Assembly: GCA_046350615.1 (NCBI GenBank)
Contig: JAXMAA010000001.1
Coordinates: 8,480-72,479 of the forward strand
DNA length: 64,000 nt
Direction: 5' to 3'
Source of the DNA: Candidatus Saccharimonadales bacterium
Lineage (GTDB): Bacteria; Patescibacteriota; Saccharimonadia; Saccharimonadales; UBA7683
Positions within the stretch are counted from its first letter, which is position 1, and each line of letters opens with the position of its first letter. Below are positions 7,293 to 30,603 of this stretch, piece by piece. The position numbers and the translations under genes are program-made. The notes below the pieces were generated by a model, which saw only the letters and a list, made by a program, of their open reading frames with translations, searched no databases and was not told where the DNA came from.

Positions 7293-7338
7293 TTGTAAAT
7301 AAACAGCGCCCAGCAGGGGTGGGCACTGCTGGGCGCTG
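7293..7338 (-). terminator. Strong rho-independent terminator (minus strand)
   Basis: Perfect 13-bp stem CAGCGCCCAGCAG (7304-7316) / CTGCTGGGCGCTG (7326-7338) with a 9-nt loop. On the minus strand it is followed by TTTATTTAC. Confidence 0.75.
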
Positions 7339-7530
7339 AAACCTCCCTTCAACCCACCCGGACGACGCGTGTGACGCATGTCTCTCTCGAATGCTCACAG
7401 CTAGGGCTAGGCCCAACCTATTAGGCTCACCGCTGAATTGGGGTTAAAGGGGTTAGAAGACCTTCAAAGCTTGACTTCAAGCGGACAAGTGTCCTCGTCG
7501 AAAACGAAAAGTGGAGGGTAAAAACTTTAT
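7339..7530 (-). ncRNA. Candidate unclassified small RNA or long leader ending at the 7293-7338 terminator
   Basis: About 190 nt of non-coding, GC-balanced sequence with several local hairpins (GCTTGA/TCAAGC, GGACA/TGTCC) directly upstream of a strong terminator. No known RNA family motif was recognised. Confidence 0.3.
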
Positions 7531-8632: not shown

Positions 8633-9004
8633 TCAACTTAGATATTTCTGTATACGCTGCTGATCTTCACGGTTTTTAACATTCTTAGCGTATAGCTCAA
8701 TAAATGTTACAGTGCCCTCGCTTATGACGGCTATAAATACCAATCGAAGCTTGCCACTCATGGAGCGCGTTTCGGTATCCAATCGCATTTTTATAACTTC
8801 ATGTGTCTGTGACTGGTGTAAGATTGTGGCTCGCTTGCCATCAAAGAACAGTGATCGATATTTTTTGAGCTCCTCATCACCTCCAGACACATATAACTGC
8901 TCTATAAGCGCATAGACGGGTTTTAGATCGGACTTTAGGGTTCGCACCTTCTTGCCAAGTGCTTTTATATCTTTTTTAAACTCCGGGCTCTCATTAAAGT
9001 TCAT
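8633..9004 (-). CDS. Candidate toxin, RelE/ParE-fold-like, partner of the Panacea antitoxin
   Basis: Overlaps the upstream antitoxin gene by 11 nt. The C-terminal pattern KMRLD..SGKLRLVFIAV..EGTVTFIELYAKNVK resembles the RelE/ParE beta-core. Confidence 0.5.
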   Translation of the reverse strand: MNFNESPEFKKDIKALGKKVRTLKSDLKPVYALIEQLYVSGGDEELKKYRSLFFDGKRATILHQSQTHEVIKMRLDTETRSMSGKLRLVFIAVISEGTVTFIELYAKNVKNREDQQRIQKYLS

Positions 9005-9785
9005 CTTCTGGCTCGGTGACAGCAGTTAGTTTGGTACGGTAAAACACATAACGGTAATCTAGAGGTTTGCCCTGACCCGCCACCACCCATGGCGTATCAT
9101 AGTGGGATAGTTCTGTTAACTCCTTGGCCGTCTTGTCACTTAGTCGTGCAAGAGTTTCGTCTATATGTCTGAGTTCGCGTGCAGATAGGCCATCAAATGG
9201 TACTGGTTTTGTTGGCAAGTACTTCTTCTGCTTGTTCTTGAAGAAATTGGTTTCAACAACCTCAAGCTCGCCTTTGGTCTTCATGCCCTCTACGACACTC
9301 TTGAATTCTGCTACAGGTGATGGACCGTAGTGGTTATGAATGTAAGTCAAACCGGTTATGGACTTACCATGTTTTTCGTAGTAATCAAAATCTATGAAGT
9401 ATAGCAGTTTGTATAGAACGGTTTCACCAACATTTGGCTTAGCACCGACTTTTTCCAAAACGTAGGCAAGCACTTCGCGCAATTTATTGTGGTCAACAAT
9501 TTGTATCGTTTCTCTGGGCTCTATACTTGGTTTGCTGAAACTGGTTGGTTCGACAGCTTGTTCTGTCGGTAGCTTACCGGTAATTAAATCTGATGGAGAA
9601 ATCTGATAAAACTCAGCAATGTCGTTAATCTGGCTTAAATCTGGCTGGCGTTTGCCGGCCTCTAAGTTGGCGTAGGTTGCCCGCGCCATGCGTAGTTTAT
9701 TTGCTACGTCTTGCTGGCTCAGGCCAGCATTGTCGCGCAGTGCTGCTATTGTCTTGCTGAAATCCATGAGGAACCTTTCTTTCAT
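8994..9785 (-). CDS. XRE-HTH plus Panacea (DUF4065/SocA-like) domain antitoxin
   Basis: N-terminal HTH LRDNAGLSQQDVANKLRMARATYANLEAGKRQP. C-terminal VLYKLLYFIDFDYYEKHGKSITGLTYIHNHYGPSP is typical of DUF4065. Confidence 0.75.
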   Translation of the reverse strand: MKERFLMDFSKTIAALRDNAGLSQQDVANKLRMARATYANLEAGKRQPDLSQINDIAEFYQISPSDLITGKLPTEQAVEPTSFSKPSIEPRETIQIVDHNKLREVLAYVLEKVGAKPNVGETVLYKLLYFIDFDYYEKHGKSITGLTYIHNHYGPSPVAEFKSVVEGMKTKGELEVVETNFFKNKQKKYLPTKPVPFDGLSARELRHIDETLARLSDKTAKELTELSHYDTPWVVAGQGKPLDYRYVFYRTKLTAVTEPEDEL

Positions 9786-10079
9786 GCCTAATAGTATAGC
9801 TTATGCTACTGTTTTGTGCAATTAATCAGTGCAGAATGTTGACGTCATCTGTTATTTTTGCTATGATTACAATCATACCGACTTATCTGAAATAAAGAGA
9901 ACTTTAACAAACAGATGTCGGGAGGTTTTAAGGAGGGTAACTCCTGACCAAACCAATCACTAGGAATGGCAACGGTGCTGACCCTCGCCAGCACCGCACA
10001 TACAAAGACTGATGACCCTTGTATGCTGCTAATTCTAGCACACATTAACAATTAATGTTTTGCTATAAGGAGTAAAATC

Positions 10080-10325
10080 ATGGCAGCAAACAGACGCGAC
10101 GTTCATGTCGTACCCAACAAATCCTCAGGCCAATTAGACTGGTCTGTAAAGCGTGAAGGCGCGCAACGTTCTAGTGGCACTTATGCCAACAAGGCAGATG
10201 CTTTGGCGGCAGCTCGACAAATTGCCGTTAATAACGGGCTTGAGATGTTCGAGCATGGTAAGAACGGCCAGATACAAAATCGTAACACGTACGGCAAGCA
10301 TGATCCGTACCCACCAAAGGGCTAA
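10080..10325 (+). CDS. DUF2188-like small protein
   Basis: Good SD (AAGGAG at 10067-10072). VHVVPNKSSGQLDWSVKREGAQRSSGTYANKADALAAARQIA fits the DUF2188 pattern. Confidence 0.6.
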   Translation: MAANRRDVHVVPNKSSGQLDWSVKREGAQRSSGTYANKADALAAARQIAVNNGLEMFEHGKNGQIQNRNTYGKHDPYPPKG

Positions 10326-10327
10326 TC

Positions 10328-10537
10328 ATGGAAAAGTTTTGCGTAAACGAGAACGAACAAGATAACGGTGATCACGAGGTACATCGAAGCTGCAGGCGGT
10401 TGCCTAAACCGGAGAACCAAGAATATCTTGGTGAGCTACCAGATAGCTTCAGTGCTATTAAGGAAGCACAACGGCGACATCCCAACTGGCGTATCAACGG
10501 ATGCGCATGGTGTTGCCCCGAAAGCCACACGAGCTAA
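10328..10537 (+). CDS. Small Cys/His-rich protein (DHEVH...C...GC.WCC..H type)
   Basis: Starts 2 nt after the DUF2188 gene. The conserved-looking motif GDHEVHRSC ... INGCAWCCPESH suggests metal binding. Confidence 0.5.
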   Translation: MEKFCVNENEQDNGDHEVHRSCRRLPKPENQEYLGELPDSFSAIKEAQRRHPNWRINGCAWCCPESHTS

Positions 10538-10551
10538 CGGCAGTACAAATT

Positions 10552-10587
10552 AAAAACAGGGTGCGTTTGCGAGGACGCCCTGTTTTT
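10552..10587. terminator. Bidirectional rho-independent terminator between convergent genes
   Basis: 12-bp stem AAAAACAGGGTG / CGCCCTGTTTTT (one G-U pair) with a 12-nt loop. A-run and T-run flanks allow function in both directions. Confidence 0.7.
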
Positions 10588-10598
10588 AGATCAGTGAC

Positions 10599-11240
10599 TC
10601 ACTTAACTTCAATACTCTCACCGTCAGTAAGAAACACAAATTCTCGGGCTGAATCAATACTGTTCACAACAAAGTTGTGTGTTACTTTATGCCCGTTGTC
10701 GCTATTCAGACCATTGTGTGTAGGAATAACAATGTCGGAATCAACTGCATTGGCGAACTCAATACACTCTGAGACTTTGAACCATGGCCCCGAGGTTGGC
10801 AAGGCAAGAACCTTCACCTTCGTATCAATAGTCTTGTACGAATCACTTGGGTAGTACAGTGCGTCGCCATCTACCATAATAGCCAGGGACTTACAAGGTG
10901 ATTTTTGGTATACCACTGCATGATCGGTTTCACTGAACGCGACCTCAAAAGCACCGAGCGATATAGTCTTATCGCCCGTTACGGCGTGTGTATGCAGGTC
11001 TGCGTCTTTCAGCTTCTCTTGTACGGCTGTGGTGGTATAGATTTGTACGTCTGGATTAGCGCGAGCAACCATTTCGAGATTGTCAGGGTTGAAGTGGTCG
11101 TAATGCTCTTCGGTCACAATCACGAAGTCTATCTTTGGCAGACCGGCCGGTAGTTCAGTAAACGAGCCTGGGTCAATGAGCATATACGCACTATCTTTTT
11201 CGAGTAGCAGGCAGGCGTGGCCGTATTTAGTGAGCTTCAT
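10599..11240 (-). CDS. MBL-fold metallo-hydrolase
   Basis: MKLTKYGHACLLLE... and VIVTEEHYDHF (HxHxDH-like) are typical of the small YtkL/UlaG-like MBL fold. Confidence 0.75.
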   Translation of the reverse strand: MKLTKYGHACLLLEKDSAYMLIDPGSFTELPAGLPKIDFVIVTEEHYDHFNPDNLEMVARANPDVQIYTTTAVQEKLKDADLHTHAVTGDKTISLGAFEVAFSETDHAVVYQKSPCKSLAIMVDGDALYYPSDSYKTIDTKVKVLALPTSGPWFKVSECIEFANAVDSDIVIPTHNGLNSDNGHKVTHNFVVNSIDSAREFVFLTDGESIEVK

Positions 11241-12192
11241 AGGCCTCCTTGAGTTCTTGCTTTGCCACTGGTTGAACCCCCCGTTTATGAAACTGCAACG
11301 TACCAGCTAGAATAGCTTGCTGAGCAGCCTCGCTGATTGCCGCTCCATCCTGCAGGAGCGCACAGAGAGCAGCCATCGTTTGATCACCGCACCCTGTTTC
11401 GTCTTTTTCGCCGGATGCTTTGATATCAGGGATTGCAATATGCGTCTGTATGTCGTTTGTAAATAAATAGGCTCCGTTCACACCCGCAGTTATAAGAATA
11501 TTCTCAACACCTTGTTCGCGTAATTTTTGGGCAGCTTTTTTAGCAGTTTCAAAGTCAGTAACCTCAATACCAGTTAGTATTTTTGCCTCATGTTCGTTTG
11601 GTTTCATTAGGTAGATGCCGGCTGCTATAAGCTCACTTAATTCTGTAGTAGCTTCAATGCCTCCTGGATCAAACATTACTTTCAGGCAATGCTTGTTTGC
11701 TAGTTGAACCGCATAAGTGGCTGTTTTTAGCGGACACTCCAAGGTCAAGACTAGAGTTCCGTTGTTCGTTGCGACGATTTCAAATAGTTCAGAGGCGGCG
11801 TCAATATCGTCTGTACTAAAGTCGTCACTCACGCCAGGCAGCACAAAAATCTGGTTATTACCATGCTGATCTACTGGTATGAGAGCAATTCCTGGCAGCT
11901 TATTCACTAGCTCATACTCAAGCACATTTACATAATCAGTATTAACACCAATTTTTGCTAATGCGTCCATCGGCTGCCGCCACAAACCGTAAGGATCTTC
12001 TACGGTTCGGCCAACCATGGCAACGCTATTTTCTGATGCAAGGTGAGCAATCATGTCAGCGATATTACGTGACTTACCGCCCGGGCCGATTAACAGTTCT
12101 TTGCCATATACGTGTTCGCCTGGTTTTGGAAATTGCGTAATACCCGTTGCCACGAGATCAGTGTTGAGCGAGCCGATGACTATGGTTTTCAT
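11227..12192 (-). CDS. PfkB-family carbohydrate/nucleoside kinase (ribokinase-like)
   Basis: GSLNTDLV, GPGGKSRN, and C-terminal DETGCGDQTMAA (the DTxGAGD-type motif). Confidence 0.85.
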   Translation of the reverse strand: MKTIVIGSLNTDLVATGITQFPKPGEHVYGKELLIGPGGKSRNIADMIAHLASENSVAMVGRTVEDPYGLWRQPMDALAKIGVNTDYVNVLEYELVNKLPGIALIPVDQHGNNQIFVLPGVSDDFSTDDIDAASELFEIVATNNGTLVLTLECPLKTATYAVQLANKHCLKVMFDPGGIEATTELSELIAAGIYLMKPNEHEAKILTGIEVTDFETAKKAAQKLREQGVENILITAGVNGAYLFTNDIQTHIAIPDIKASGEKDETGCGDQTMAALCALLQDGAAISEAAQQAILAGTLQFHKRGVQPVAKQELKEAYEAH

Positions 12193-12470
12193 TTCTCTAC
12201 TTCCTCAAGCAATGAAATAATCTGATAGCCATATTTGTCGATATCCTCTTTGTTCCAGAAGTCAAAGTCTTTTGTTTTGCCTACAAAACCTACTTTTCGC
12301 TTTAGGGTGCGACCAGTTGGTTGTTTTGTGTTCTCATCAATCTCAACCAGTACGAGAATATCCCCTTGACTGCACTCCCAGTCAGCTAGGCGTAGCTCGT
12401 AGGTCTTTTCTCCAGTCTCAATCTTGTCGAAATACTCAGGCAAGATTTTCTTTTCAATTAGTTTACTCAT
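12189..12470 (-). CDS. ASCH-superfamily protein (DUF3850-like)
   Basis: KKILPEYFDKIETGEKTYELRLADWECSQGDILVLVE matches the DUF3850/ASCH N-terminal pattern. Overlaps the kinase gene by 4 nt. Confidence 0.6.
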   Translation of the reverse strand: MSKLIEKKILPEYFDKIETGEKTYELRLADWECSQGDILVLVEIDENTKQPTGRTLKRKVGFVGKTKDFDFWNKEDIDKYGYQIISLLEEVEK

Positions 12471-12511
12471 CTCTATGATTATACCTTAACTCTCGAACAA
12501 AATATCCTGTT

Positions 12512-13300
12512 CTACTCCTCCACAAACCCCACCGGCAACTCGTGGTAAACGGGTTCCTCATCCCAATCCACTTCCATTGGTCGCAGCCAGATATCCTTTT
12601 CACCGCCGAGGAGGCGTTCTTCAGTGGTGGTGAATAGTTCAGAGTCCCAGAGCAAGTCAGTCGACATCTTAATAATTCGTTTTTCAGTACTATTGTTGCC
12701 GGCAACCAGCAGTAGGTAGGGATAGCGGTACTCCGCTTCCTCATCAGCATAGTCAATATGTTGGTTAATACGTTTACGAATAGTCCAGCTTTGTTCACCA
12801 GCGGGGATGTATTCCATAAAGAGTTCAGGAGTATCCTCAGCGTCTGGGGCGAATAACAGCCAGGGCATGGGGTTCAGATAGTCTTCGGGGTCAAGCTGGT
12901 ATTTGGTATACGTACGGTACATCTGCGGGTAGTTGCGGTGAATAGCTCGGCTAAACTTCGGGTAGCGGTAGTATTCATCTATCTGCGGTTCAGTGAAGTC
13001 TTTGTTCTTGTAGTGTAGTTGGGTACGGGCTACGCACTGGGCTTTTAAGTAGCGTATGCCAGCTGGGGCTAAGTAGTAGGTTGCTGGTCGTCTATCTATA
13101 CGGTACGTATTACTGTACTTCTTTGCTGCATATCCTTGGTCTACGAGTACTGCTAATCTCTCGTATATTGTTGATCTATCTTTATGTAGTAGGTCTGCTA
13201 GTAGATCGGTTGTTAAGAATCGGTATTTCAGTAACGTGTGTAATATCGAAGTTTGTGAACTGCTAATCTTATATCTTGCTCTTGTCTCCGCACGCCGCAT
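12512..13300 (-). CDS. Replication-relaxation family protein (plasmid/ICE-type wHTH)
   Basis: N-terminal ILHTLLKYRFLTTDLLADLLHKDRSTIYERLAVLVDQGY winged-helix pattern of the replication-relaxation family. Confidence 0.55.
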   Translation of the reverse strand: MRRAETRARYKISSSQTSILHTLLKYRFLTTDLLADLLHKDRSTIYERLAVLVDQGYAAKKYSNTYRIDRRPATYYLAPAGIRYLKAQCVARTQLHYKNKDFTEPQIDEYYRYPKFSRAIHRNYPQMYRTYTKYQLDPEDYLNPMPWLLFAPDAEDTPELFMEYIPAGEQSWTIRKRINQHIDYADEEAEYRYPYLLLVAGNNSTEKRIIKMSTDLLWDSELFTTTEERLLGGEKDIWLRPMEVDWDEEPVYHELPVGFVEE

Positions 13301-13394
13301 GTATTTTTTCTCCTATATGTATATATAAAAGAAGAGAAAGTAAAAGTAAAGAATTAACAGAGGTGATAGCAAGAATAAAATACCATGTGCTTAG

Positions 13395-14456
13395 TGGGGA
13401 TTTTAGACTACCCTGGAAGCTCGTATTGTAGGAGTGCGCTATACTGTTTGGTATGGCAAAACAACCCCGTGAATGACGATCAACGCAGATTTCTTGATAA
13501 CCTGCCGGATGATCAGGTAAATGAGAATGCTGAGCAAAAGCTCGACAAAGCTATTGCACGCGCCGCGCAGCAGTCGCAATCAAAACAGGAAAAACCGGAA
13601 CCTGCCGATGGTTATAGCGATATACAAACTCGTTCAGATACAGCTGGAGATACTTCCGACTAACGCAGTGATAAGTACCATCCATGGAGCGTTTCAGTTG
13701 TGACCAAAAGCCCTCAATAGTGTTGGTATGCACGGCTCCACGACCATACTCACCAATACTGTGATTCACGCTATCGTGGTAGTAGCCGATACGGTGCACC
13801 GTTCGGTAGACTCGAGCCTGGTCGCTATATACCACTGAGCCAGGTGCTATGCCAGACTGCAAGCGTGGCAGTAGTACCCGAGCGCCAGCACTGCGCACAT
13901 GTTCGGCTTTGACTTTACCACCACGTTCGACCATACCAAAGACAATGGCTTTATTCTGCACGGTGACATTCTTGCCCCGTTCACGGCCGCCTATGTAGGT
14001 TTCATCAGTTTCAACAATGCCAGACAAAGAAGTGTTGCTATCGAGCATCAAGGTGCGTACCTGCTTGGCAATCCGCCAAGCAGTTTTGTAGGTCACGCCC
14101 AGATGGCGTTCCACTTCTTTGGCCGAGACGCCGTTCTTAGCGACTGAGAACAAGAAGATGACGTAGAACCAGTCTTTCAGCGGTGTCGACGACTTATGGA
14201 AGATGGTATTAGCTAACGGATGAATCTGATTACCACAGTCTTTACACTCGTAGCACTTACGATTCCGAACTCGGTAATAGCTGGGATCAGCGACCCCGCA
14301 CTTGGGGCAAGCGGGCATCTGTCCATAGGCCAGGTCAAACATATATTCCAAACAAGCAGTATCATCTGGGAAGCGTTCGTTGAATTGCTTAACCGTAAAC
14401 CTCATACTTACAGTGTATCACAGAGGTTACATGTTGTAAAGGGATAATCGTCCCCA
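13395..14456 (-). mobile_element. IS1595-family insertion sequence (ends uncertain)
   Basis: Contains the transposase gene. Only a weak candidate terminal inverted repeat was found (TGGGGA at 13395, TCCCCA at 14451), and no target-site duplication was found. Confidence 0.45.
13551..14405 (-). CDS. IS1595-family (ISXO2-like) DDE transposase with N-terminal zinc ribbon
   Basis: CPKCG...CKDCG zinc ribbon, HTH GVSAKEVERHLGVTYKTAWR, VETDETYIGG and the later D/E positions typical of IS1595. Confidence 0.85.
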   Translation of the reverse strand: MRFTVKQFNERFPDDTACLEYMFDLAYGQMPACPKCGVADPSYYRVRNRKCYECKDCGNQIHPLANTIFHKSSTPLKDWFYVIFLFSVAKNGVSAKEVERHLGVTYKTAWRIAKQVRTLMLDSNTSLSGIVETDETYIGGRERGKNVTVQNKAIVFGMVERGGKVKAEHVRSAGARVLLPRLQSGIAPGSVVYSDQARVYRTVHRIGYYHDSVNHSIGEYGRGAVHTNTIEGFWSQLKRSMDGTYHCVSRKYLQLYLNEFVYRYNHRQVPVFPVLIATAARRVQ

Positions 14457-18818: not shown

Positions 18819-19868
18819 TTGCAAGAGGAAGTTATGGAACAGACAACCAATCTCGACATCAAGAAGGCAGCCAAGGAAATCTTGGAGACAATTGAGCGTG
18901 ATCGCGAACGCGAAATCATTGCCCGTCGATTTGGTCTGTATGACCGAAAAGAAACCCTCGAACAGATTGGCGAACTTCTCGGTATTACCCGTGAACGGGT
19001 TAGACAGCTTGAAAAGGCTATTCTTATTCGCCTGAAGATTGCTGCCGAGAAGGGTGAACTTCCGCACATGCAGGAAGTTGAGAAAGAATTTATCAAGCAG
19101 CTTTCTGAAATGGGCCGAGTTGCTCGTGTCAGTGATCTTGCTGAAAAAGTAGGGGATACCGGCGACGAACGAGATCGTGCACATGTGGCTTTTCTCGCAA
19201 CGCTCGCGCCCAAGCTTTCAGTACTGGATGAAAACGATGATTATCATCAAGCAGTCGCTATCAAAGAGCACTACGATGAAAAAACCTTAAGAGATCGTGT
19301 CTCTGACATTGTGAAGACCATCAAAACTCACGGCCAGCCACTGACTATTACTCAACTCCACGAGAAGGTCAGCGGCTACGAACACCCAGACCACGTTCGC
19401 GCGATCGCAAGTGCCAGCAAGAATCTTGCAAACCTGAAAGACCAGTGGGGTCACATAAAATGGCCACTAGTTAATCCGAAGAATATTCGTGATAAGATCT
19501 ACGTAATTTTGCAGGAAAACGAAAAGCCCATGCACTTTTCTGAAATCTCCGAAAAAATCAAAGATTCTGATTTTAAGCGCAAAGACGTTACTACTCAGGC
19601 TATTCATAACGAGCTCATTAAAGATGCTCGTTTTGTATTAATTGGCCGCGGTATCTATGCCCTCAAAGAATGGGGCTACAGCAAGGGAACCGTATCTGAT
19701 ATCATCACCAAAATCTTGAAGAAATCGAAAGAGCCAATGCACCGCGACGACATCGTCCGTGAGGTCCTCAAGAGCCGCCAGGTAAAAGAAACGACCATTC
19801 TACTTAACCTCCAGGGCAAGCCACAGTTCAAACGAGTGGCAAAAGCCACCTACGAACTCGCTGAGTAG
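18819..19868 (+). CDS. Sigma-70 region-4-like HTH plus HARE-HTH domain protein
   Basis: IIARRFGL..TLEQIGELLGITRERVRQLEKAIL (sigma r4), then MHFSEISEKI...IGRGIYALKEWGY (HARE-HTH, RpoE-delta-like). The start may be the ATG at 18834. Confidence 0.7.
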   Translation: MQEEVMEQTTNLDIKKAAKEILETIERDREREIIARRFGLYDRKETLEQIGELLGITRERVRQLEKAILIRLKIAAEKGELPHMQEVEKEFIKQLSEMGRVARVSDLAEKVGDTGDERDRAHVAFLATLAPKLSVLDENDDYHQAVAIKEHYDEKTLRDRVSDIVKTIKTHGQPLTITQLHEKVSGYEHPDHVRAIASASKNLANLKDQWGHIKWPLVNPKNIRDKIYVILQENEKPMHFSEISEKIKDSDFKRKDVTTQAIHNELIKDARFVLIGRGIYALKEWGYSKGTVSDIITKILKKSKEPMHRDDIVREVLKSRQVKETTILLNLQGKPQFKRVAKATYELAE

Positions 19869-20538: not shown

Positions 20539-20769
20539 ATGCTTAAGTTTTTGCTGACAAGTTGGTGGCTTTATATTCCGATTATCGGCGTTTTACTCTA
20601 TTTAACCCGGCGGAATAATCAGAAGATTAAGGCTATAAAAGCGCAACGCACAGAACGGGGTGGTCACAGTTTCCACAAGCAAGCTTCGGTTAAGTCTACA
20701 CGGATTAAAAAGGCGGCTGGTAAACTCGGCCTAAGTGGCGCAGCAAGCCATCTTCACCGCTCAAAGTAG
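20539..20769 (+). CDS. Small basic membrane protein
   Basis: One N-terminal TM segment followed by a Lys/Arg-rich tail; ORF evidence only. Confidence 0.35.
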   Translation: MLKFLLTSWWLYIPIIGVLLYLTRRNNQKIKAIKAQRTERGGHSFHKQASVKSTRIKKAAGKLGLSGAASHLHRSK

Positions 20770-21181
20770 ACAAATGCAGCATATGCCGTCATTCTTGACT
20801 TGATTAGGGGCGTAGTTAGCACGATATACCGTAAACTCGAAATACTAAAAATACGATCAAAACACAGTAGTGTAGACAAAATACGAACATTATCGTTGTC
20901 TGTGATTGTAAGCTCTAAGCACGGAAGCATGTTCGTTAGCACAATAATTCAAACACTCGCACTAAATCCGCTGTGGCATGTCGGTCAATTGTAAATGTAC
21001 AAAATACGAACATTCAATAACGGTATCGTGGGGCGTGGAACCAAAATACGGCATACATTAAATCTCAAATATACAAGGTACGGTAGGTGATGAGAACGCA
21101 AATCAAGAACATGTAAGCAAAACGAGATTATTAAGCATAAGAAAGATGAGTGCGCATATGCGACTTTGAGATGGTATCGTA

Positions 21182-21209
21182 ATGTCGCACAATGTATATT
21201 TTGCGACAT
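21182..21209. other. Candidate dif-like Xer recombination site (11-6-11)
   Basis: ATGTCGCACAA-TGTATA-TTTTGCGACAT. The arms are inverted repeats matching at 10 of 11 positions. The central hexamer equals the E. coli dif spacer TGTATA. The site lies in a gene-free convergent zone. Confidence 0.4.
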
Positions 21210-21645
21210 ATAATAAATCTCCCCCTGGTGGGCGCAAGTTACTCCCCAGCAGGGGACTTTCTGCAGGTATGCCACTAAAAAACGCCTCCATCCACCCGTA
21301 AACTTACTTTAAATCTGCCGGTATCCGTGCAGCCGCTACACCACGTGATGCACTCTACAACCGCACACTAATTTGACTTTTCCACAATACCTTGTGAAAA
21401 GTTGCATTTTTGACATTTTCATGCCGCAATGTTTTTATACTGCTCTCTCCCCTCCATCATGTGGTTTTTGCATAATTTGCTTTTTTCTATTTTTATATGT
21501 TTTATAGACTTTTTTCAGAAATAAAACACTCGAACAAAATACGAACATGAAGAGAAGAGAGGAAAGCGTGGTTCGTGGTTCGTTCTAATTATGGCCGCTC
21601 CGTCATGTTTTCATGAACGGCTTACAACCCACCAAGCTAAACTCC

Positions 21646-22581
21646 CTATTTATAGAATGCTTTGTGCGGCGTCCGTAAATCAATATACTCAGCAGGCGTG
21701 ATATTCTTGGCCTTAAGATAGCCCAGCAACGAGCCCAACTCCCCTACTTGCTCCGGAAGTGGCCGTGTAGAACTAAGCTTAACAATATAGGCCTGCGAGC
21801 TTAACTGTACCTGCACTTCTCTTGTTGAACGTGGCACAATAACTCGGCTAACCTTTACATCACCACCTCCGTATACGGATGGTATCTGATTATGTAGTTG
21901 GCCGATAAACTGAATGAGTTGTGTGCTCAAAACTGATGCTCCTGCATCAAGCGCCACACCACTTTGATCTTCAATCTGGGTCAGTCTATTAATTTGTACA
22001 CTGGGGTCGAGGTTTCTAGAAAATAATACACCGTTTGCATCGACAAATTGCTGTGTGTTACTTACATCCTTCCACACAAAAACTGGCTTTCTGAAACGAA
22101 CGTCAACCTTCAGCGCGGCACTAATGGGGGCCGTTTGAGAAACTTCAAGCCACTGTATCTCCGGATACTGCTTTGTTATAGCACTCTTCAGGCCCGCCTC
22201 ATCTAGCAGCCAAGACTGTCCTAAAACTGTATGTTCGTGGTATGCGCGCAGTATACTCGCTTGATACTGATCCGCGAGTTCAGTTGTCAGTTTGGTCGAA
22301 GCATTACTGCGTAACTGCACTCTTGTAATCTGCATTCGATAGCCCAACGCTACAATAAGGCATAGACCCACTAGGGCGAGTGTTCTATTACGAACAATCC
22401 GGCGAGCGAGTAGTTTTTTACGATCCTGTTGCCTCTGGGTTACAGACTGTTGCCGTGCTGCCATTTCACGCTGCGAACGGGAAATAACCACATTGTTACG
22501 CCTAAACACCTCACCAATACCAGCCTTTGGCTGACGTGTACGTACTGATGCAAATGATTGTTCTTTTTTTTTGCGAAACAT
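21646..22581 (-). CDS. ftsQ: Cell division protein FtsQ/DivIB-like (TM plus POTRA)
   Basis: Basic N-terminus, one TM segment (LALVGLCLIVALGY), a POTRA-like segment, and a position directly after murG. Confidence 0.7.
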   Translation of the reverse strand: MFRKKKEQSFASVRTRQPKAGIGEVFRRNNVVISRSQREMAARQQSVTQRQQDRKKLLARRIVRNRTLALVGLCLIVALGYRMQITRVQLRSNASTKLTTELADQYQASILRAYHEHTVLGQSWLLDEAGLKSAITKQYPEIQWLEVSQTAPISAALKVDVRFRKPVFVWKDVSNTQQFVDANGVLFSRNLDPSVQINRLTQIEDQSGVALDAGASVLSTQLIQFIGQLHNQIPSVYGGGDVKVSRVIVPRSTREVQVQLSSQAYIVKLSSTRPLPEQVGELGSLLGYLKAKNITPAEYIDLRTPHKAFYK

Positions 22582-28544: not shown

Positions 28545-29455
28545 GCGCGAAGCTGGGCGCTCCGTGCTCATCCGGTTTAAAACATCGTTGGTTGCACCGC
28601 TTATTGGTTTTTTTGTCAGAACTTGCAGCCGAAGCCTCGTAACCTTTTTGGGCTTCTGTTTTAAAAAAGTTTTTTGACCAGCCGATCTTCCAATTCTGAA
28701 AGCTAATCACTACTACCTACCGCTGGCTGTAGCAACTGCAGCAGCAAAGGTAGTGTGGTTTCAAGCTGTGCAAGTTCTTGGTTAACCGCGATGCGTAGTG
28801 CTTGAAAGGTGCGAGTCGCAGGGTGTGTTTTTGCACTCTGCGTCTATAAATCTCCTCAACAAGTGCAGCGAGCTGGAGTGTAGAACGAGCCGGACGCTGG
28901 GCAATTGTTGCCTGAGCAATCTGCTTAGCCCGTGGTTCTTCGCCGTAGTCCTTTAAAACTCTCGTGAGTTCTGCCTCCGGAATACTCATTAACCACTATG
29001 TGAGCAGTAGGTTCTTGGCGGTTTGTCCATTCACATGTCAAGCTCGGCATCAGTTTGAAAACTAAATCCGCGCTCGGCGTTGTCAAGTGCAGTGGCAATG
29101 CACCCAAATCGAGTAGTATCATATCAAACTGCTTACTCGCATCCTGCAAGCTCGAAATTGGCAACTTTCCAAACGAAAATCCTGATGGATAAGCCGAGCG
29201 CCCTGCTCTTTCAATGTTTGCAAACAGCCAATTGCGCTGACTATCTCGATCAACCAGTGTCATAAACGCGTTACCCGTTATTTCACGAATAGCCGAAGCG
29301 TGCCCGCCATACCCTGCCGTCAAATCAAGATAAGTTTCACCTGATTGTGGCGCAAGTACGTCAAGAACCGCCTCCAGCAAAACTGGAACATGGGAGTTGT
29401 TGTGGTGGTGTGCTTCTTTTACCATCCGCCTTAGCATAACGTAGGCAAATCCCAA
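28545..29455 (-). pseudogene. rsmH: 16S rRNA m4C1402 methyltransferase RsmH, degraded (multiple frameshifts plus nonsense)
   Basis: RsmH motifs are spread over three frames: HVPVLL..DLTAGYGGH and LLDLG; then ALDNAERGFSF..LDM*MD (TGA at 29031-29033); TAHIVVNEYS; ELTRVLKDYGEEPRAKQIA; [18 protein letters not shown]; VISF; LEDRLVKK; ARSAQLRANK*. Confidence 0.85.
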
Positions 29456-29887
29456 ATTACAAATTCCAAACTACAAATAATTCCAAAATTCGAACATTCT
29501 ATTACAAAACGTTTGTCGTTTATATCACTCGGTGATTGAAATTTATTTGTGATTTGTTATTTGATCATTGTGATCTGCTTTGCTAAAGCAAAGGCAGTTG
29601 GTTCGAGGTCACCTATCCTGGCAATCAGCTTGTTTGTTTTTGGTATCTTTTTAAGATATGTGTTTTTGTTTTTGATTTGTGCCAATGGAATGTTATGAGT
29701 GGTAATTTCAAAAATTACTATATATCCATTGGCGAGAGAGACTTATGTGTGAGGTGGAGTTTTTTGGGAGGTTTTTAAACCTAAGAAAGTGCAAAGATCT
29801 ATTTTTAGTGTAATCTTCATTCCCACCGCCAATTGCCAAGGTAGCTGACCTCGAAAGTACGAGTGTTTTAAACTGTTAAAGTGCGTA

Positions 29888-30256
29888 TCAAAGCGCAGGA
29901 TGGTCAGCTGGCATAATGCGCCAATACTGCCCCGCCCGTACTGCTACCACATCCTTGGTGATACCAGCGTAATCCAGAAGGTGGTTTTCAATGGTGAACC
30001 TGCCCTGCTTAAGATCGAGTTGTGATTCGATCTTGCCCATCCGAAGACGCACGTTCTTATCGGCTGTAACCTCATCAAGAATATCGCCTCGAAGAGCTGG
30101 TTCAACCATTTGATCCCAGACGTCTTTTGCATATAAATGCAGATACTGTCCGAACCCTCTGGTTACTACTACCCCGCTCGCAAATTCTGTTCGAATATCC
30201 GACGGTATGGTTAGCCGCCGTTTATCATCGAGTTTGCGCTCAAAGTAGTCGCTCAT
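29888..30256 (-). CDS. mraZ: Transcriptional regulator MraZ
   Basis: LDDKRRLTIPSDIR and a second SpoVT/AbrB-like half (LDLKQGRFTI). The start is taken at MSDYFERK (ATG 30254-30256) rather than the longer ORF. Confidence 0.9.
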   Translation of the reverse strand: MSDYFERKLDDKRRLTIPSDIRTEFASGVVVTRGFGQYLHLYAKDVWDQMVEPALRGDILDEVTADKNVRLRMGKIESQLDLKQGRFTIENHLLDYAGITKDVVAVRAGQYWRIMPADHPAL

Positions 30257-30362
30257 GATATATAGAAATCCTCTACTTGTTAATCTCAGCTTGACTGAAA
30301 CATCAGCAAGTTGAATCATTCTTTTTTGTTAATGTTTGTTTGTGGCTGGGTGGCTGCTTTGC

Positions 30363-30451
30363 TACCCACATTTACCCACTGACATTGATAATATACCTAC
30401 AACTACCCACATACAAGCCTTTTTACATAGATTTTTCGCCATTTTACCCAC
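30363..30451 (-). promoter_or_regulatory. Candidate MraZ operator: four direct GTGGGTA boxes
   Basis: Plus-strand TACCCAC at 30363, 30373, 30404 and 30445 (spacings of 10, 31 and 41 bp), lying 107-195 bp upstream of the mraZ ATG. Confidence 0.55.
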
Positions 30452-30603
30452 AAAAAACAAAATCCCCAGCACTTTTCCACAGTTCTGGGGATAAACACTC
30501 GTCTATTCCATCACCAATACCAAGCTCAACACCCCCGCCCCGACAAGGATAATCCTTGTCACGAAGACTAGCCTCTGACATGTGAGCTTTAGAAGTGTTA
30601 TGA

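Follow-up and report, generated by a model that had tools for sequence, protein, structure and literature searches.

Most bacteria, E. coli and B. subtilis among them, carry a chromosomal dif site served by XerCD. This site is a 28-bp imperfect palindrome of 11-6-11 layout, non-coding and low in G+C, which occurs in one copy near the terminus and varies in its outer arms and central hexamer. Integration at dif via the host Xer system is classically known from filamentous phages such as CTX-phi. On plasmids, the cer (ColE1) and psi (pSC101) sites combine a core Xer site with accessory protein-binding DNA (~180 bp), and there ArgR, PepA or ArcA determine in what topology and direction Xer recombination proceeds; ArcA, the psi accessory protein, is an OmpR-family regulator. 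The classical chromosomal dif with its 6-bp centre is generally held to work without accessory sequences, and the flanks of proteobacterial dif sites are unconserved (PMC2731167). The difSL/XerS, difH/XerH and archaeal dif/XerA systems have arms more symmetrical than those of the classical dif, show lineage-wide conservation and often have the recombinase gene adjacent to the site. Our literature search found no description of dif in the Candidate Phyla Radiation. The locus described here appears to share the layout, base composition, copy number and variable positions of chromosomal dif, and probably a place near the terminus, down to its exploitation by integrating filamentous-phage-like elements, and to differ from it in its surroundings.

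The window, that is, the whole 64-kb stretch of DNA that was analysed, belongs to the chromosome of a Saccharimonadales MAG, whose FtsQ-like protein bears the locus tag U0520_00190 on a 351,512-bp contig. A phage origin of the window was rejected, as megablast against phage records gave no match. The gene-free zone under study (20770-21645) is bounded by two convergent gene ends, a 76-aa ORF with its stop at 20769 and an FtsQ-like gene with its stop at 21646, and the neighbours therefore need no promoter there. The left flank, on the plus strand and ending at 20769, encodes TopA, a sigma-70 region 4 plus HARE-HTH protein (18819-19868), a 204-aa ORF and the 76-aa ORF. The right flank is the end of the cell-division (dcw) cluster on the minus strand, in the order PBP, MraY, FtsW, MurG and FtsQ-like, ending at 21646. 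The first-pass annotation had seen no convincing ORF in the zone, and we likewise found the small ORFs inside it to be without conservation. It had offered four options, namely a terminus region, a regulatory hub, a relic or plasmid-type origin, and a source of sRNAs. A genome scan with MurG peptides retrieved zero relatives. Relatives whose FtsQ was just 43-70% identical kept the gene order with a gap of 770-1260 nt, and blocks within this gap were identical or near-identical among them.

The zone contains an element that was absent from the earlier annotation, a 28-bp imperfect palindrome at 21182-21209. It reads ATGTCGCACAA-TGTATA-TTTTGCGACAT on the plus strand and ATGTCGCAAAA-TATACA-TTGTGCGACAT on the minus strand, that is, two 11-bp arms around a 6-bp centre. 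With up to 5 mismatches allowed, it occurred in a single copy in the 64-kb window. It was 100% identical across syntenic loci whose FtsQ was merely 55-70% identical. When one genome per GTDB species was scanned with the pattern GTCGNAAAANATANATTGTGCGAC, this core was found on at least 120 contigs, one per assembly. The matching contigs were mostly titled Patescibacteria (Saccharibacteria, Paceibacterota, Nomura-, Kaiser-, Morani-, Shapiro-, Beckwith-, Campbell- and Yonathbacteria). About ten records were titled Bdellovibrionales, Gamma-proteobacteria or Pseudomonadales, and some just "bacterium"; we take these to be mis-binned or untyped. Variation, which can be read solely at the pattern-free positions and those just outside, the remainder being fixed by the search pattern, affected the two outermost bases of either arm, position 7 (C/T) and central positions 1 and 5. 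A similar positional pattern of variability was described for dif by Carnoy and Roten (PMC2731167). The orientation of the 28-mer relative to dcw was the same in 68 of the 69 loci with dcw genes in view.

The 28-mer pattern was also present in 28 IMG/VR contigs, and in one of them, a 48-kb phage contig, genes for a terminase-like protein and an SU10-type portal lay ~480 nt away from it. Clustering of the 250-nt flanks, taken from low-GC contigs of human oral origin plus a single GTDB Saccharimonas contig, yielded two classes on the left and two on the right, which occurred in all four combinations (L0/R1 in four contigs, L1/R0 in four, L0/R0 in two and L1/R1 in one) and met exactly at the 28-mer. 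L0 corresponds to the flank on the chromosome, with TTTTCCACA located at -231 to -269. One L1/R0 contig encodes a Zot-like protein (phrog_197), Zot being the filamentous-phage assembly ATPase. Read as junctions, the four combinations are in all appearance the complete attB/attP/attL/attR set in oral relatives, and these natural recombinants point to strand exchange at the 28-mer. The mobile partner would be a filamentous-phage-like (inovirus-like) element. Like IMEX of the CTX-phi type, this Zot-like element has an identical 28-mer and is seen free and integrated at the chromosomal copy; unlike them, its hosts are Patescibacteria, and here the mobile element is without the box and DnaA-box flanks. 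Recombinant flanks at the 28-mer, together with a Zot-like, filamentous-phage-like element, led us to call the 28-mer dif, an assignment that we hold with considerable confidence. Given the shape of the site, its conservation and the natural recombinant junctions, dif appears to be the most likely identity.

Set against what we take to be the E. coli dif sequence, the 28-mer matches at 19 of 28 positions, the whole central TGTATA included. Arm TTTTGCGACAT agrees at only 7 of 11 positions with TTATGTTAAAT, presumably the conserved XerD arm, and we thus consider the 28-mer a divergent variant. In contrast to chromosomal dif, the arms ATGTCGCAAAA and ATGTCGCACAA are closer to each other than to the canonical XerD arm. 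The site shares its lineage-wide conservation with difSL, difH and archaeal dif, as well as these more symmetrical arms, which would fit a single recombinase, and differs from those systems in that the sequences are unrelated and no recombinase gene lies within 20-40 kb. Neither Xer nor FtsK nor DnaA genes were found within the 64-kb window, an observation that counts against a dif complex at this place.

Saccharibacteria-wide, the 28-mer sits in an array of ~700 bp in which the order and spacing of motifs are constant. These conserved flanks of fixed spacing set the site apart from the classical chromosomal dif, as do its linkage to the end of the dcw cluster across the phylum and the DnaA boxes alongside. 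Read on the dcw strand, with distances from dif, the array opens with box 1 (ATGTTCGTATTTTGTTCG, ~-340). Then come 125-128 nt that are AT-rich and then G-rich, a distance from box 1 to the DnaA block found in seven loci. In the window, the AT-rich tract spans 21456-21530, with a word, TATATAAAACATA, kept in the alignment; the AT-rich stretch noted earlier, 21470-21530, is indeed 80% A+T and falls in the top 0.13% among 61-nt windows. The G-rich tract (GGAGGGGAGAGAG, 21443-21455, minus strand) lies between the AT-rich tract and the DnaA block, and its GGGGA core is kept in an 18-locus alignment. Then follow CATGAAAATGTCAAAAATGCAACTTTTCACAAG-N5/6-TGTGGAAAAGTCAAAT, the facing DnaA-box-like 9-mers, at ~-180, and 170-270 variable nt with a CCCC/GGGG hairpin at their end, before the 28-mer itself. 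The 28-mer is followed by a conserved block and then by boxes 2 and 3, at ~+200 and ~+320 respectively. The conserved block reads AAAG.CGTATA...ACTCATCTTTCTTATG on the minus strand (21136-21172); it is kept in Saccharimonadales loci and also adjoins the 28-mer of a phage contig (L133). The hairpin, or hairpins, of the form CCCC(T/C)-loop-(A/G)GGGG lie 10-50 nt from dif. A GC hairpin had been reported here at about 21221-21258; it exists, with coordinates 21219-21257, and a short T run follows it on the plus strand. Its fifth pair is C-G in some lineages and T-A in others.

A long conserved gene-free gap (770-1260 nt) with blocks at constant spacing could also be expected of one large structured ncRNA spanning the zone, with the 28-mer and the CCCC/GGGG motif as RNA hairpins. 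One compensatory pair in a small hairpin speaks for it, and the C-to-T change at position 7 of the 28-mer would preserve a G-U pair on one strand. As a matter of fact, an Rfam search of the zone returned 0 families, at the gathering score or at E up to 10, and the stretch between the DnaA block and dif folded no better than shuffles (z-scores -0.9 and -0.6). At the outer positions of the 28-mer we saw no covariation (73 Watson-Crick pairs against 66 expected, and 54 against 50 expected), which argues for recognition by a protein and not for a hairpin. The blocks are conserved as sequence and not as structure, and the 28-mer recombines as DNA. We judge an ncRNA of this kind very improbable.

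The pair of DnaA-box-like sites that had been pointed out, TTTTCCACA at 21378-21386 facing TGTGAAAAG at 21393-21401, is present. On the minus strand the facing 9-mers read TGTGGAAAA and CTTTTCACA, and they belong to a block (21371-21423) in which the word (A/T)GTCAAA, or TTGAC(A/T) as seen from the plus strand, recurs. Stretches of 33 nt and 16 nt of this block were identical in three loci (L001, L003 and L004). In the window alone the consensus TTWTNCACA showed no enrichment, with 8 sites against 7.4 expected. Across 127 loci, it was enriched 15-20 times at -300 to -100 of the 28-mer, at a rate of 0.23-0.29 per locus per 100 nt, and 61 of the 63 sites there were on one strand. The other strand reached 0.04-0.07 per locus per 100 nt between 0 and +200, over a background of 0.00-0.02. 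At least one consensus site stood by the 28-mer in 60 of the 127 loci, with TTTTCCACA accounting for 40 and TTATCCACA for 17. The significance of the DnaA boxes thus comes from their cross-species position alone, and not from their frequency in the window. On this evidence the consensus is tied to the 28-mer phylum-wide, and such an association cannot be chance. In comparison with E. coli datA, DARS1 and DARS2, the locus likewise is a small non-coding DnaA-box cluster, here with putative architectural-protein sites; those loci are not beside dif, whereas here there are just two boxes, tied to a recombination site. The chromosomal position of datA and DARS is conserved (PMC4585315), as it is at the present locus.

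The 15-mer ACAAAATACGAACAT, the motif that had drawn attention to this zone, occurs exactly at 20876-20890, 20999-21013 and 21534-21548, all on the plus strand. With up to 2 mismatches there was one further match in the window, at 29483; shuffles had a mean of 0.25, and 0 of 100 reached 4. The match at 29483 lies upstream of rsmH, is absent from relatives and is probably due to chance. The same holds for an inverted core, CATGTTCG, which does exist, on the plus strand at 20928-20935, one base off its annotated position; it is a half-box not kept in relatives and probably a chance occurrence. The degenerate variants were also recovered, AAAATACGATCA at 20848-20859 and CCAAAATACGGCAT at 21041-21054, the former being a degenerate fourth box on the minus strand that is not kept in relatives.

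Read on the minus strand, the three exact copies are the boxes of the array. Box 1 (21531-21548) includes copy 3, is a full GTTC-N7-GTTC and lies at -337 from dif; in 36 loci its position is -325 to -430. Box 2 (TGTTCGTATTTTGTAC, copy 2, 20999-21013) lies at +198, conserved between +180 and +280, and box 3 (TGTTCGTATTTTGTCT, copy 1, 20876-20890) at +321, the spacing between the two being 114-127 nt in relatives. Box 1 thus stands alone on its side of dif, with boxes 2 and 3 opposite, and all three share one orientation. The 15-mer follows the direct-repeat scheme GTTC-N7-GT(T/A)C. In box 1 this becomes TGTTCG-N5-TGTTCG, with hexamers one helical turn apart; boxes 2 and 3 have a degenerate second half. 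Such spacing of hexamer repeats is typical of tandem winged-helix binders, for example OmpR/PhoB/ArcA-family regulators.

Over 959 kb of Patescibacteria loci, the relaxed form TGTTC-N6-TGT matched 119 times. Some 90 of the matches lay at -500 to -300 or at +100 to +400 of the 28-mer, on one strand, over a background that was almost nil within 1.5 kb of the 28-mer. The left box was present in 36 loci, the right box in 44 and both in 27. In the window and the related loci, the 15-mer thus turned out to be no common word: the box is position-specific and flanks dif in many Saccharibacteria. Lineages have their own versions of it at constant positions (TGTTCGCATT, GTTCGTAAAATGTT, GTTCGCAATTTGTT, GTTCTATTTTTGTTCTA, TTTGTACTAT and ACAGGGGTG), and within one genome the left and right copies match each other. 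Because the boxes change in concert while the dif arms stay constant, they are likely bound by a protein other than the recombinase, and the same protein would read both sides of dif. For the same reason, the idea that the boxes are Xer half-sites was rejected. A 17-mer form of the box was found in 65 viral contigs, mostly from low-GC prophage families, and 0 of these had the 28-mer. Its presence in unrelated low-GC prophages indicates that the word is not unique to the dif system.

Some of these viral 17-mers adjoin GAAC-N4-GTTC boxes, of the Cheo type of LexA. A possibility is that the boxes are ordinary operators, of a direct-repeat LexA or an OmpR-family regulator, which control unannotated sRNAs or peptides and merely share a gap with dif. 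GTTC-N7-GTTC is the published alphaproteobacterial LexA box (PMC8565304), a direct-repeat motif that box 1 fits, and the LexA of Patescibacteria has reportedly acquired a direct-repeat motif in its evolution (PMC7739468). A LexA box of this type would be expected in the promoters of lexA, recA and other repair genes. Beside dif, the conserved block, which resembles a mini-ORF, and the hairpin, which resembles a terminator, would also suit such operators, as would a histidine kinase/response regulator pair conserved 10-20 kb away (response regulator at 2206-2778). However, no further box copy was found near any promoter in the 64-kb window, recO, xseA, dprA and topA included, and boxes were almost absent outside the dif flanks in ~0.9 Mb of related loci. 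The sole LexA-like gene seen in ~1.4 Mb of loci had no box upstream. A promoter and terminator scan of the zone revealed no terminator and only promoter-like sites at chance level, with no consistent promoter. The Rfam search and the folding z-scores given above lend support neither to sRNAs nor to a regulatory hub, two of the earlier options. Last, the constant two-sided spacing to dif is not expected of a simple operator. We regard ordinary operators as rather unlikely.

We then turn to the terminus question. Of the window's 49 genes, 39 are oriented toward the 28-mer, across flanks of 21 kb and 43 kb. Such convergence holds for 20-40 kb on each side; in one relative, the far-side gene orientation holds for ~20 kb and is then mixed. 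Within 8 kb, 91% of the long ORFs point toward the 28-mer, in loci that are not independent since synteny is conserved. The 28-mer stands at 48.7% of the record in the complete genome CP064960.1, and at ~76% in CP023991.1, a record of unknown start point.

Total GC skew was higher on the left than on the right of the 28-mer in 80 of 91 loci. As this measure is confounded by coding-strand bias and conserved synteny, it was dropped as a terminus signal and replaced by an analysis of four-fold sites (GC4). To the right of the 28-mer, the coding-strand GC4 skew was +0.152 for minus-strand genes and -0.210 for plus-strand genes; to the left, it was -0.309 for plus-strand genes at 0.2-8.5 kb and -0.292 for those at 14.5-20.5 kb. 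The plus strand is C-rich on both sides, with no flip at the 28-mer. In pooled loci of the Saccharibacteria type the value was +0.06 toward dcw and -0.32 on the opposite side, and one relative showed the same picture across 20 kb. The GC4 signal drops to about zero 22-28 kb from the 28-mer, which is therefore close to the compositional terminus without coinciding with it. Most simply, the fork that copies the dcw cluster would as a rule run past dif and encounter its counterpart 20-30 kb beyond it. This offset is 2-3% of a ~1 Mb genome and agrees with the 17-kb gap (48.7% versus 50%) in CP064960.1. Proteobacterial dif sites have a median offset of 7.3 kb and a third quartile of 21.4 kb, so that the present one falls in the upper quartile (PMC2731167). 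Of the four early options, a terminus region thus comes closest: the dif-type site and the converging genes agree with it, while the strand-composition switch is 20-30 kb away.

These results bear on two other readings. According to the first, the boxes are polar fork-pause (Ter-like) sites which, with a terminator protein, set the stop of the fork beside dif. They do adjoin dif where genes converge, they are asymmetric with a fixed orientation, and terminators of the RTP type are winged-helix proteins. Nevertheless, all boxes on both sides face the same direction, whereas a fork trap needs opposed sets, and the GC4 skew shows the dcw-side fork usually passing through the site. Ter-like sites are thus improbable in our view.

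The second reading is that of an origin, be it chromosomal, relic or plasmid-type, in which the DnaA boxes would go with an AT-rich unwinding tract and the 15-mers would serve as iterons. The DnaA-box-like pair, the G-rich tract and the 80% A+T tract do follow one another in an origin-like order, the DnaA consensus is strongly linked to the locus phylum-wide, and the (A/T)GTCAAA words and the 15-mer look iteron-like. Yet genes converge on the site, as the ORFs within 8 kb illustrate, where oriC would have diverging genes and a matching composition. The right-side minus strand is G-rich whatever the gene orientation, indicating that forks arrive there rather than leave, and there is no negative-to-positive composition change. 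The 64 kb hold no dnaA, dnaN or rep gene; there are just two DnaA boxes, and their consensus is no commoner in the window than chance predicts. An iteron origin would have tandem iterons beside a rep gene, whereas the 15-mer boxes stand on either side of dif at intervals of 123 and 535 nt; and the neighbouring 28-mer behaves as a recombination site. The relic or plasmid-type origin with iterons proposed at first is thus not supported, and we consider an origin of any kind extremely unlikely.

Collectively, as far as sequence comparison can establish them, we put forward three points: a dif-type site, a conserved and oriented array of motifs with fixed spacing, and the apparent use of the site by mobile elements. 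The dif site would have conserved accessory-like flanks, DnaA boxes included, unlike the classical dif. On balance, we lean to the view that the zone is a dif locus set inside an array of putative protein-binding motifs, to which the 15-mer boxes belong. Xer-type tyrosine recombinases would cross over at the 28-mer and convert chromosome dimers to monomers near the end of replication. The boxes would bind a protein of the winged-helix type, such as an OmpR/ArcA-family response regulator or a direct-repeat LexA. DnaA might bind the facing DnaA boxes and form, with the box protein, a higher-order complex around dif. By analogy with the accessory sequences of cer and psi, this complex could control the timing or the mode of recombination.

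The analogy goes some way, as cer and psi also join a core Xer site to accessory protein-binding DNA. What we take to be the ArcA site, GTTAATTAAATGTTA, and the box GTTCGTATTTTGTTC are both direct repeats whose units recur every 11 bp. In contrast, the accessory DNA of cer and psi is one-sided and the boxes here are two-sided; the centre of cer is 8 bp, whereas here it is 6 bp, in a chromosomal site with DnaA boxes. No PepA or ArgR sites were identified in the zone. We counted both the two-sided boxes and the prevailing view that classical dif has no need of accessory sequences against an accessory role.

A bolder version, which we think unlikely, is that Patescibacteria have wired dimer resolution to DnaA, an origin-like complex of DnaA and the winged-helix protein being assembled at the last-replicated locus. 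This complex might license Xer recombination, or might titrate or reset DnaA once the terminus has been copied. Either function would tie the completion of one round of replication to the initiation of the following one. In an extreme form, initiation and termination may share the locus; this would fit the missing skew switch, but the converging genes contradict it.

At the 28-mer the genes change polarity and the mutational skew does not, and this poses a concrete puzzle as to where the forks meet. A dif site in the CPR would provide a sequence marker of the terminus region for thousands of fragmentary genomes, an aid to finishing and to growth-rate estimates. It would also point to a route for Xer-dependent mobile elements, and possibly genetic tools, in organisms that are very hard to manipulate. 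Last, the conserved flanks suggest a way, not described elsewhere, in which these minimal cells control dimer resolution or register that replication is ending.

Genes lying on the TopA side of dif were oriented toward it over ~20 kb (window 1-20769, and likewise in the compared loci L129 and L224), and their coding strands were C-rich at four-fold degenerate codon positions, with a GC skew of -0.29 to -0.31. Such C-rich coding strands are the signature of lagging-strand genes. The switch points of gene polarity and of mutational skew therefore differ. We also noticed on this side a minus-strand block (8994-14405) encoding an IS1595-family transposase, two HTH regulators (one of them RstR-like), a ribokinase and an MBL-fold hydrolase. 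At four-fold sites, the skew of this block was opposite to that of the surrounding DNA. Because the block was missing from the syntenic region in relatives, it probably represents an island that was inserted or inverted.

Closer to dif, a 349-aa protein (18819-19868) combines an N-terminal sigma-70 region 4 with a HARE-HTH domain near its C terminus, a domain also present in the RNA polymerase delta subunit. In 42 loci, a gene for this type of protein was located one or two genes away from dif. TTGAC(A/T) is the target of sigma-70 region 4, and the dif module contains three such words, which the protein may bind. In two relatives, the first far-side gene from dif encoded an 850-aa ATPase with DUF87 and TrwB-type domains (L006, 10285-12846; L007, 9972-12530), which resembles FtsK, HerA or coupling-protein families.

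Beside dif itself, a conserved ATG-led mini-frame preceded by AAGAAAG lies on the plus strand at 21145-21168, and a counterpart occupies the matching place in L001, L003, L004, L007, L008 and phage contig L133. The peptides read MSAHMRL, MSIYTSLR, MSVYTSLR, MSIYTTQ, MSMNTSFE and MSVHTSFLQ. The mini-frame could be a tiny peptide or merely a palindromic protein-binding block. In Patescibacteria other than Saccharibacteria (L012, L049, L056, L076 and L097), a perfect TTATCCACA was located 10-50 nt from the 28-mer, often near a C-rich tract; both its side and its strand were opposite to the Saccharibacteria arrangement.

Elsewhere in the window, mraZ (29888-30319, minus strand) is preceded by four to five copies of the word ACCCAC(A), that is, TGGGT on the mraZ strand, together with TTTTCCACA (30340-30490). 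MraZ is known to have a TGGG-repeat operator, and this arrangement looks like it. The rsmH gene, separated from mraZ by a 430-nt gap, seemingly consists of two ORFs of 176 and 90 aa (28717-29455) that overlap near 28925-28989; the apparent split reflects either a frameshift or an error in assembly.

The exact 17-mer TGTTCGTATTTTGTTCG, a form of the repeated box near dif, recurred in several unrelated prophage families of isolate genomes (GC ~31%; IMG/VR contigs L161-L223). Since a GGAAC-N4-GTTC box often lies 12 nt away, the 17-mer may serve these prophages as an operator of the repressor or LexA type.

The 28-mer was likewise carried by mobile elements. The 48-kb phage contig L133 has it with the adjoining conserved block (7329-7352), ~480 nt from a terminase-like gene, and this phage may use the host Xer system for integration or dimer resolution. 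Small low-GC elements from human-oral samples combined the 28-mer with a gene for a Zot-like protein and were found both unintegrated (L139, L144, L148 and L153) and joined to chromosomal flanks (L032, L149 and L156). In oral Patescibacteria, they would represent filamentous-phage-like elements that depend on Xer.
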